A stretch of DNA of 64,000 nucleotides from an uncultured Flavobacteriaceae bacterium. GTDB taxonomy: Bacteria > Bacteroidota > Bacteroidia > Flavobacteriales > Flavobacteriaceae. The stretch spans positions 32,846 to 96,845 of the forward strand of contig CAVQQR010000011.1 of the NCBI GenBank assembly GCA_963715015.1. The letters run 5' to 3'. The first letter of the stretch is position 1. Each line of letters begins with the position of its first letter. This document shows, one piece after another, positions 15,655-29,905 of the stretch. The notes under the pieces are model-generated. The model had not been told where the DNA came from. It did not search any database and saw nothing but the letters and a program-made list of their open reading frames with translations. A program made the position numbers and the translations under genes.

Positions 15655-15734
15655 AGGAGCAGGTTTATATTAAATGCGGACAAATTTAAATTTTTCAAAT
15701 AAAGAAGTCTTAATTTTGATAAAAATTATACCTT

Positions 15735-16853
15735 TTGAAAAAACTAACCTTATATGCCTTCCTATTTTTTTCGATCACGATTGGTTTCGCACAGAAAAGA
15801 GAGAAAGATTCGCTAAAAGGTGAAGAGAAATTTGATAAAGAAAGAAATTTCATTGCCATTCCTACCGTCACCTATAATAATAGTTTCGGAGCCATGTTTG
15901 GCGGTATGGCGAGTTATTTTTATCACCTGAACGAGAACGACACTATATCTCCTTTATCTTCAAGTGGTCTGGTGGCCACCTATACGAGCAATAAAAGCTG
16001 GTTTTTGATCGTACCGAATTCTCTTTATTTTAAAGAAGATAAATACAGAGCCAAGCTAGTTGGAGGATTAGGTTCTATTGAATTTCAAACTTTTGTGGAT
16101 TGGAGTGATATCATTGGAAACTTACCACCGGCAATACTTCCGCCTAACTTAGATGGCACCTTTATCGATTTCAATACAACTTTTGCATTTCTTTATTCTG
16201 AATTTGTCACAAAGGTCTATAAAGATTATTATGTAGGGGGGAATTTTTTAATTTCTAACACGAAGACAATTTTTGATCTGCCAACAAATCCGGAAGACGA
16301 GCAAACATTGTTAGGATTTGGTTTTAATTTTGAAAAGGATTCGAGAAACAACCAGTTTGCACCTACCTTAGGAAATAACGGAAAATTGTTTACCAATCAT
16401 TTTCTCAAAAGTTTTGGGAGTACTTCAAACTACAGTAATTTTAACTTTCAATTCAATCAGTATTATCCCCTGAAAGAAAAAAATACCCTGATGTGGCGTT
16501 TATATGCTCAGGTTGCTTCCGGTGACGTACCTTTTTCCGGACAGAATGTGGTAGGAAGTGATGATTTGCGTGGCTATTCGAATGGTAAAAACAGAGCGAA
16601 TCAGGTGTATGACGCACAAACTGAATACAGACATTGGTTAAATGAAAAGTGGGGATTTGTCGCTTTTGGCGGAATTGCCACGGCAGTCAATAATTTTAGC
16701 GATTTTTCGTTTAACAAACTTCTGCCGGCCGCAGGAGCCGGCATTCGCTTTGCCGCTTTACCTAAATCAAACATCAATATAGGGATTGATGCCGCTGTTG
16801 GTAAAGAAGATTGGGGCGTTTATTTTAGAATAGGAGAGGCCTTTATTCGTTGA
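15735..16853 (+). CDS. Omp85/BamA-TamA-family beta-barrel outer-membrane protein (no POTRA)
   Basis: Signal peptide (TTG start), DSRNN, LRGY motif, GAGIRF and C-terminal YFRIGEAF. Confidence 0.8.
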   Translation: MKKLTLYAFLFFSITIGFAQKREKDSLKGEEKFDKERNFIAIPTVTYNNSFGAMFGGMASYFYHLNENDTISPLSSSGLVATYTSNKSWFLIVPNSLYFKEDKYRAKLVGGLGSIEFQTFVDWSDIIGNLPPAILPPNLDGTFIDFNTTFAFLYSEFVTKVYKDYYVGGNFLISNTKTIFDLPTNPEDEQTLLGFGFNFEKDSRNNQFAPTLGNNGKLFTNHFLKSFGSTSNYSNFNFQFNQYYPLKEKNTLMWRLYAQVASGDVPFSGQNVVGSDDLRGYSNGKNRANQVYDAQTEYRHWLNEKWGFVAFGGIATAVNNFSDFSFNKLLPAAGAGIRFAALPKSNINIGIDAAVGKEDWGVYFRIGEAFIR

Positions 16854-28888: not shown

Positions 28889-28929
28889 AATCAAAGAGTT
28901 GTCAATTCAAGATTGACAACTCTTTGATT
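28889..28929. terminator. Perfect 18-bp inverted repeat, probable bidirectional terminator
   Basis: aatcaaagagttgtcaat-tcaag-attgacaactctttgatt followed by T-run. It lies between the S9 peptidase and the tRNA-linked array. Confidence 0.75.
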
Positions 28930-28934
28930 TTTAA

Positions 28935-28951
28935 GTGATCGCGAAAGGATT
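28935..28951 (-). repeat. 17-bp duplicate of the tRNA-Arg 3' end (att-like direct repeat)
   Basis: gtgatcgcgaaaggatt is identical to 29603-29619. Confidence 0.9.
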
Positions 28952-29508
28952 ATTGACGTGATCCTTTTCGTCGCATTTAGAGAATGAAAAAAATCCGATA
29001 TCCGTCTAGCGACGGATTCGCTTTAATTTTTTGTCGTTCCTTACGAAACTGAAGTTTCGACAGTTCACAGGATTATTATCATGATCCTTTTCGTCCTATT
29101 TAGAGAATGAAAAAAACCCGATATCCGTCTAGCGACGGATTCGCTTTAATTTTTTGTCGTTCCTTACGAAACTGAAGTTTCAAGAGTTGACAGGATTATT
29201 ATCATGATCCTTTTCGTCCCATTTAGAGAATGAAAAAAATCCGATATCCGTCTAGCGACGGATTCGCTTTATTTTTTTGTCAGTTCCTTACGAAACTGAA
29301 GTTTCGACAGTTCACAGGATTATTATCATGATCCTTTTCTTCCCATTTAGAGAATGAAAAAAATCTATCCGTCTAGCGACGGATTCGCTTTAATTATTTG
29401 TCAGTTCCTTACGAAACTGAAGTTTCGACAGTTCACAGGATTATTATCATGATCCTTTTCTTCCCATTTAGAGAATGAAAAAAATCCGATATCCGTCTAG
29501 CGACGGAT
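28946..29508. repeat. Tandem array of about 4.6 structured units of 121-124 bp (tRNA-linked repeat, candidate ncRNA array)
   Basis: Units start (aggatt) at 28946, 29069, 29192, 29316 and 29437. All carry atccgtc-tagc-gacggat, and the complete units carry cgaaac-tgaa-gtttc(g/a). Confidence 0.95.
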
Positions 29509-29564
29509 AGATTTTTTATTTGTCGAAATCTTAAGCAATTGAACTTGCTACGATTTCTCCAAAT

Positions 29565-29593
29565 AAAAAATCCCGCTGTTGCGGGATTTTTTT
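29565..29593 (-). terminator. Intrinsic terminator of the tRNA operon (symmetrical)
   Basis: aaaaaatcccgc-tgtt-gcgggattttttt, about 10 nt past the tRNA-Arg 3' end. Confidence 0.85.
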
Positions 29594-29603
29594 AATTCAT
29601 TTG

Positions 29604-29677
29604 TGATCGCGAAAGGATTCGAACCTTTGACCGTCTGCTTAGAAGGCAGATGCTCTATCCAGCTGAGCTACGCGACC
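29604..29677 (-). tRNA. tRNA-Arg(TCT)
   Basis: GGTCGCG acceptor, TCTGC-CT TCT AA-GCAGA anticodon arm and AAAGG-TTCGAAT-CCTTT T-arm. CCA is not encoded. Confidence 0.97.
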
Positions 29678-29720
29678 TCCAAATTTATCAGGTACGAAAC
29701 CTCCAAATTTATTTTTATTG

Positions 29721-29795
29721 TCGGGGTGGCAGGATTCGAACCTGCGACCTCCTGCTCCCAAAGCAGGCGCGATAACCGGGCTACGCTACACCCCG
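29721..29795 (-). tRNA. tRNA-Pro(TGG)
   Basis: CGGGGTG acceptor, CCTGC-TT TGG GA-GCAGG anticodon arm and GCAGG-TTCGAAT-CCTGC T-arm. Confidence 0.97.
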
Positions 29796-29821
29796 TAAAA
29801 ACGGATGACAATATTTCACTG

Positions 29822-29905
29822 CGGAGAGACAGGGATTCGAACCCTGGCAACGGTTACCCGTTGACAGATTAGCAATCTGCTCCATTACCACTCTGGCACC
29901 TCTCC
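29822..29905 (-). tRNA. tRNA-Ser(GCT)
   Basis: GGAGAGG acceptor, GCAGA-TT GCT AA-TCTGT anticodon arm, long variable arm CAACGG-GTAA-CCGTTG and T-arm CAGGG-TTCGAAT-CCCTG. Confidence 0.97.

Follow-up and report, generated by a model that had tools for sequence, protein, structure and literature searches.

What is the hairpin-rich tandem array that lies behind a tRNA-Arg gene in an uncultured Flavobacteriaceae bacterium, and how did it come to be there? The stretch of DNA that was analysed (the window) is 64,000 nucleotides long and comes from a genome of 2.17 Mb that is 71% complete (G000). TRF placed the array at 28946-29508 (period 123 bp, 4.6 copies, 94% matches, score 1000), and the unit starts that had been read from the letters alone (28946, 29069, 29192, 29316 and 29437) were all correct. 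The 18-nt core hairpin shared by the units was found five times in a genome-wide search, all five at this array. The element CGAAAC-TGAA-GTTTC is present in four copies, with the base change in unit 2 that had been claimed; the units are 93-95% alike along their length, in keeping with the reported lack of unique spacers; and none of the 51 window ORFs matched a cas, reverse transcriptase or transposase family in Pfam, as the sequence-only reading had held. No integrase family was matched by these ORFs either. As the units are near-identical, without unique spacers, and no cas family occurs in the window, a CRISPR array was rejected. Elsewhere in the window, a weak two-copy tandem repeat of 18 bp (15714-15751, TRF score 55) is probably due to chance.

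The features of the locus are as follows:

28889-28929, minus strand: distal terminator-like hairpin, 18 pairs, with a homolog in a module-free congener
28935-28951, minus strand: 17-bp copy of the tRNA-Arg(TCT) 3' end, identical to 29603-29619 (tRNA positions 58-74, standard numbering)
28946-29068, minus strand: unit 1, partial module, 123 bp; core hairpin at 29000-29017
28946-28965, minus strand: T-arm-like hairpin of unit 1, whose 3' strand forms the start of the tRNA copy and whose central loop is G-N-N-A on the tRNA-sense strand
28974-28985, minus strand: unit 1 copy of the family-conserved sequence motif, adjoining the T-arm-like hairpin
29069-29191, minus strand: unit 2, partial module, 123 bp; core hairpin at 29123-29140
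29192-29315, minus strand: unit 3, partial module, 124 bp; core hairpin at 29246-29263
29316-29436, minus strand: unit 4, partial module, 121 bp; core hairpin at 29367-29384
29437-29602, minus strand: complete tRNA-proximal module, with a different allele in its tRNA-proximal half; core hairpin at 29491-29508
29565-29592, no strand assigned: module-supplied proximal terminator-like hairpin, 12 pairs, flanked on either side by A- and T-tracts
29603-29677, minus strand: tRNA-Arg(TCT), the host gene; the array lies 3' of it
29720-29795, minus strand: tRNA-Pro(TGG), member of the upstream cluster
29821-29905, minus strand: tRNA-Ser(GCT), member of the upstream cluster

The array occupies an insertion of 668 bp that lies between tRNA-Arg(TCT) and the 17-bp copy of the tRNA 3' end, and the insertion bears one terminator-like hairpin at either end. 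The tRNA copy, which overlaps unit 1, had been missed at 28935-28951, and the frame in which the array was initially described was to that extent incomplete. The fifth unit had also been described as truncated; instead, 29437-29619 could be aligned over its full length with complete modules of 12 other loci (mean column identity 75%). A complete module consists of a trailer, a terminator-like hairpin, a long hairpin, the core hairpin, the motif and the T-arm-like hairpin, and it is therefore the four distal units that lack the module terminator and trailer. In the tRNA sense, the tRNA is followed by the trailer, the terminator, the long and core hairpins, the conserved motif, the T-arm-like hairpin, four partial repeats, the tRNA copy and, last, the second terminator. 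Within 29437-29602, two pairings are open to the 5' arm of the proximal terminator, one local and one with a segment next to the motif. At two other loci (L060 and L078) compensating insertions preserve the long-range pairing, which could represent terminal inverted repeats or an anti-terminator. A sigma-70 promoter scan found 5 candidates against 3.8 +/- 1.8 expected, using a model that does not cover Bacteroidota promoters.

It had been proposed that long reads might expose the copies as an assembly artefact. Unit-to-unit junctions were recovered in contigs from public marine and sediment DNA runs: contig X4 covers 29118-29263 with 0 differences, X5 (28981-29133) and X6 (28995-29147) also carry such junctions, and X1 holds both flanks of the array, although X1-X4 may be the source study's own runs. 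Since these contigs hold both unit junctions and flanks, the repeat is not an assembly product; none spans the whole array, and 4.6 copies is the assembly figure. Contigs from three RNA runs (X10, X11 and X12) came from related strains and gave patchy cover or none.

Congeners present the locus in several states. A single module with its tRNA copy is found in G005; G003 has two units with the same two-allele junction as the window; and the units of G001 are decayed. In G014, the homolog of the distal terminator lies directly 3' of tRNA-Arg(TCT) with no module, which is likely to be the pre-insertion state; the downstream gene differs from that of the source genome, so that G014 does not offer a strict orthologous empty site. 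In G002, an 18-kb integrase island occupies tRNA-Arg(TCT) and has displaced the module from the tRNA; its 46-bp duplication starts in the anticodon arm and its ends are unrelated to the module. This island (L021:11608 to L022:9952) encodes a tyrosine integrase, an excisionase-like gene, an AAA protein and type I restriction-modification-like genes. Nearby (L021:9118-11448), two degenerate look-alikes of the tRNA-Arg 3' end flank a sulfatase gene, an arrangement that may be an old insertion with cargo. In a separate repeat of G014 (L015:1-1272), at least seven tandem units of 171 bp stand upstream of tRNA-Pro(TGG). Every unit opens with the first 28 nt of the tRNA and continues with a replaced anticodon arm; these are probably gene-less or decayed cassettes of GIY-YIG nucleases.

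Within the source genome, a module profile matched related modules at all three tRNA-Arg genes and at none of the 21 other tRNAs tested. A second array, of 105 bp in 4 copies, lies behind tRNA-Arg(TCG) (C5:111376-111743; E=2.9e-4), and three stacked modules with tRNA copies between them lie at tRNA-Arg(ACG) (C5:76040-76480). Searching one-genome-per-species data with a unit-core pattern returned 24 stretches, of which four (L057, L059, L068 and L070) were dropped as chance matches inside ORFs; nearly all of the 20 true loci are titled Flavobacteriaceae, Lutimonas or Namhaeicola, and 17 have a tRNA-Arg alongside. The motif variant of the TCG and ACG loci occurred in 12 of 301 family genomes, with 10 of the 11 loci outside the source genome beside tRNA-Arg. 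A strict combined pattern matched 5 of the 22 family genomes searched and none of 278 genomes from the rest of the phylum. The expectation of homologues elsewhere was borne out most broadly by a pattern joining the tRNA-Arg end to the trailer, the start of the module, which was found in 60 of 401 family genomes and 53 of 302 genera (reversed control, 0), the source genome itself not matching this strict form. With a profile trained on other loci, 20 of 30 trailer-pattern loci reached 10 bits or more (two of the 30 are cut by contig ends and one overlaps the training set).

Modules are about 90-180 bp long, and the spacing from the tRNA end to the motif is constant at about 61 nt in many genera. 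Module types are common to different Arg isoacceptors: window-type modules occur at ACG and TCG genes (L063, L074, L076 and L109), the other type occurs at a TCT gene (L072), and L113 has both TCG-like and ACG-like copies, between which the only difference is one base. In L108, L110 and on C5 of the source genome, unlike types follow one another with an intervening tRNA copy. The 5' strand of the module follows the host T-stem at some loci (L093, L094 and L069) and not at others (L058, L065, L073 and L074). Many modules across the family close with a copy of the tRNA tail, and decayed modules and eroded tRNA copies are common. At L055:6000 and L056:6000-6408, a module pair stands 6.9 kb distal to the main array, with duplicated flank and enclosed oxidoreductase-like genes, which is either a segmental duplication or cargo capture. 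At L164:1800-2150 and L155:1800-1971, further module types form tandem series behind tRNA-Arg(TCG), and the same tRNA gene has a GIY-YIG cassette on its upstream side.

The periods of the tandem arrays differ in nearly every genome and include 46, 48, 67, 77, 79, 81, 82, 83, 88, 91, 102, 105, 113, 123 and 141 bp; with such a range, amplification must have happened many times. The window array breaks a few bases after the T-arm-like hairpin, as do those of G003, L060, L069, L072, L073 and L092. Other arrays (the TCG array of the source genome, L056, L078 and L099) take in 12-50 nt of distal flank, so that the array end is not fixed, and fixed-end amplification of a retro-like or rolling-circle kind was rejected. 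Junction fillers often derive from the distal flank. Neutral slippage probably explains the array step, though not the module itself.

The module folds better on the strand in the tRNA sense, with z scores against shuffles of -4.3 and -3.4, than on the other strand (-2.3 and -2.1). In an alignment of 13 complete modules, 93% of the cells are paired and both partners vary in 14 of the 38 pairs, although the structure was derived from the same alignment and the sequences are related; slid controls gave 42-51% pairing, and none of 500 shuffles reached the module value. The loops carry a further signature. The central loop of the T-arm-like hairpin is of the G..A form in 37 of 52 distinct copies (37 loci) in the tRNA sense against 2 of 52 in antisense, these being counts of related copies with duplicate loci removed, in which four rows are the same hairpins on the other strand. 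The 37 loops comprise 15 GNA triloops, 13 GNYA and 9 GNRA. Core hairpins have G..A in 13 of 14 loops and GNRA in none, whereas control terminator-like hairpins of the source genome, for which loops were counted separately from the central-loop count, have G..A in only 3 of 48. According to PMC13037366, GCGNAGC and GCGNNAGC mini-hairpins are far more stable in DNA than in RNA, and RNAs favour GNRA and UNCG loops. Because the loops are mostly of the DNA type on the tRNA-sense strand and terminator controls rarely are, these observations point to single-stranded DNA as the working form of the module. The covariation and the strand bias would fit an RNA equally well.

The explanation that we consider the best, and somewhat favour, is that the module is a non-autonomous mobile DNA element, most likely selfish and gene-less, that inserts at tRNA-Arg 3' ends by means of a trans-acting nuclease. 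The nuclease is predicted to read the module hairpins in single-stranded DNA. Insertion would restore the tRNA gene and supply a new terminator, and would thus be close to harmless. Neighbouring modules that lost the tRNA copy and terminator between them would become trapped, and could then be amplified by slippage or unequal recombination to give the 123-bp units. DNA hairpins serving a trans-acting nuclease had been offered as the alternative to an RNA in the sequence-only reading, and it is this alternative that fits the loop data best. No circle, excision or within-species presence/absence was observed.

Candidates for the enzyme were sought among genes that accompany the modules. In the loci read, with ORFs judged by eye, no gene for a nuclease, integrase or transposase was found inside a module. 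Small GIY-YIG genes (PF01541, Pfam) have a tRNA gene as neighbour at 14 of 21 genus loci, and one nearby at 27 of the best 30 family loci for a tRNA-adjacent query; from their motif, these tRNA-side nucleases look Slx1-like rather than cd10448. Their far side usually carries a hairpin-interrupted partial tRNA copy. In L148 and L156 the order is tRNA, terminator, nuclease and a 3' copy interrupted in the T-loop, and L151 has the same order at tRNA-Arg(TCT). Gene-less copies of the cassette occur (L120 and L123), and one palindrome family is found both beside GIY-YIG genes (L097, L119 and L162) and inside modules (L182, L183 and L192). The source genome has two such genes (C7:23397-23627 and C7:2772-3002; L121 and L130). 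Each has on one side a 5' tRNA copy that a hairpin interrupts and on the other an intact tRNA gene, tRNA-Leu(CAA) or tRNA-Asp; a tblastn match before tRNA-Arg(TCG) (E=0.19) may be a remnant of another. None of the 51 window ORFs is a GIY-YIG gene, and both copies in the source genome flank other tRNAs. In G008 (L128), a tRNA-Leu-derived sequence without an anticodon arm, called as tRNA-Gln by ARAGORN, heads tandem GIY-YIG genes.

It had been suggested that genes co-occurring with the core hairpin be tabulated; two gene families were compared with the trailer. GIY-YIG genes accompany it in 11 of 26 trailer-positive genomes against 25 of 124 genomes (OR 2.9, p=0.023), a weak association among kin that are not independent, calculated on the assumption that the underlying genome searches share the same first 150 genomes; 15 of the 26 had no match to the single GIY-YIG query. 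RAYT-like genes, used as a control, show no co-occurrence (5 of 26 against 31 of 124, p=0.62). The GIY-YIG cassettes on the 3' side duplicate the host terminator together with the tRNA end, whereas the window insertion duplicates 17 bp only; its own terminator and 17-bp duplication make the module more att-like than a GIY-YIG cassette. That tRNA-associated GIY-YIG nucleases of about 80 amino acids move the module is put forward only tentatively. Equally conjectural is the fuller version of the idea, in which a gene-less DNA of about 100 bp, present across the family and homing to tRNA-Arg, would mimic the T-arm through DNA mini-hairpins and be inserted and multiplied by these nucleases.

Two other enzymes were considered and set aside. 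A REP/BIME arrangement with a RAYT transposase, also raised by the sequence-only reading, was tested and not supported: the module motif was absent from all 30 RAYT flanks. The REP flanking the RAYT gene of the source genome has 14 nt in common with the tRNA end, and one of its copies looks like the T-arm-like hairpin; this likeness was discounted because the loop variant is common in the gene's own REPs, the resemblance occurs in the source genome alone among 30 flanks, and there is no co-occurrence. The gene itself (C14:4898-5458; L205) is a RAYT-like Y1 transposase with its own REP hairpins and a chance likeness to the tRNA-Arg end. The integrase of the G002 island was rejected as mover, since the duplication and ends differ.

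A structured RNA laid out as the rrA/B/F RNAs of E. coli are would account for several of the same observations, and a multi-copy structured ncRNA system was the leading proposal of the sequence-only reading. The position between two terminators is that of rrA/B/F (PMC8144298), and the better folding of the tRNA-sense strand, the paired changes that no shuffle equalled and the constant spacing from tRNA end to motif would all be expected of an RNA. However, an Rfam scan of the array gave nothing at gathering score and no RtT match, the loops are mostly GNA or GNYA rather than GNRA, CsrA was not found in the 71% complete source genome or in five near-complete carriers, copy boundaries and periods vary freely with many copies decayed, and the trailer pattern occurs in only 15% of the family genomes sampled. 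The terminator-like hairpin between tRNA and array also counts against the proposal. The layout and the covariation favour an RNA, the missing Rfam match and the varied periods weaken the case, and an RNA is considered unlikely.

The precise 17-bp duplication of the 3' end and the module-supplied terminator raise the prospect that the module consists of the joined attL/attR arms of a tyrosine-integrase island at tRNA-Arg, moved or excised in trans, or is a decoy att site. Islands that target tRNA genes typically duplicate the tRNA 3' end precisely and bring their own terminator, and an integrase island does sit at the same tRNA in G002. That island, however, has a duplication of 46 bp and unrelated ends and has pushed the module away; the loci read contained no island with ends of the module type; none of the window ORFs between the att-like copies is an integrase; the source genome has a single tyrosine recombinase, of 309 aa; and double-stranded att arms do not explain strand-specific loops of the DNA type. 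Such a relic therefore appears improbable. Phage or island attP sites were also sought, and three kinds of viral scan gave 10 chance matches inside ORFs, none, and 3 chance matches. An old, inert insertion inherited vertically, with arrays arising by neutral slippage at stable hairpins, would be in keeping with the many decayed modules and eroded tRNA copies and with junction fillers taken from the distal flank, a pattern expected of simple tandem duplication. Stems with compensating changes, a motif kept across 53 genera, and modules of mixed types at three unlinked isoacceptor loci, make this explanation very improbable.

If the module is indeed gene-less DNA that homes to tRNA-Arg and is multiplied by these nucleases, it would be the non-autonomous partner of an undescribed transposition system, and would provide a mechanism for the origin of tRNA-linked repeats that are otherwise unexplained. 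Should a nuclease of about 80 aa drive insertion at tRNA ends, the system would be an unusually small site-specific one; should that prove wrong, the family would be a well-characterised, lineage-specific tRNA-linked repeat. The family comprises dozens of natural variants, with cultured carriers (Lutimonas species are among the records). Its target is defined, its DNA hairpins carry a strand-specific signature and a candidate enzyme can be named. With these in hand, the origin of such repeats becomes testable in vitro.

Among known systems, REP, BIME and REPIN sequences resemble the module as gene-less hairpin repeats in tandem or mosaic arrays that are moved in trans via single-stranded DNA. 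They differ in that the module profile matches the source genome only at tRNA-Arg loci, and in that the RAYT-like gene there has a REP family of its own and does not accompany the module. Integrative elements share the duplication of the tRNA 3' end, the restored tRNA, the new terminator and tandem accretion, whereas here neither integrase nor cargo lies between the repeats and each module measures about 90-180 bp. Ssn enzymes are small GIY-YIG nucleases of a single domain whose cuts in single-stranded DNA fall close to an oriented hairpin, and their authors raise a mobile-element origin (PMC11893778). They are similar in size to the candidate movers and show that such enzymes can cut hairpin-adjacent single-stranded DNA (PMC11893778); unlike Ssn with its SRM repeats, the array has no flanking nuclease gene and the module is not dispersed in the genome. 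The word 'tRNA' does not occur in the main text of PMC11893778. Literature searches found no paper on this module. By inspection, the NTS consensus is absent from the module, and some loop inserts resemble bulged REP-type hairpins.

The closest likeness proposed at the outset, to the tRNA-linked repeats of E. coli, was strengthened by the copy of the tRNA 3' end and by the position between two terminator-like hairpins. According to PMC8144298, such repeats were first described in 1978, include the tyrT-tyrV repeats and rrA/rrB/rrF, and are mostly of no known function; rrA/B/F lie between two terminators and give RNAs that are transcribed and processed to discrete species, with CsrA as partner. 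In the source genome and the five near-complete carriers, CsrA was sought as PF02599, and RtT (RF00391) was absent from 38 Rfam matches up to E=10. As in the repeats described there, a non-coding repeat in one to five copies stands behind a tRNA gene and ends in a short copy of the tRNA 3' end. The tRNA-identical end of 18-19 bp given for those repeats is represented by 17 bp at the end of the whole insertion, CCA not being fully encoded. The internal 123-bp units, in contrast, share only about 6 bp of the tRNA copy, and the module is restricted to tRNA-Arg isoacceptors and has loops of the DNA type. The array is a lineage-specific variant of the tRNA-linked-repeat kind.
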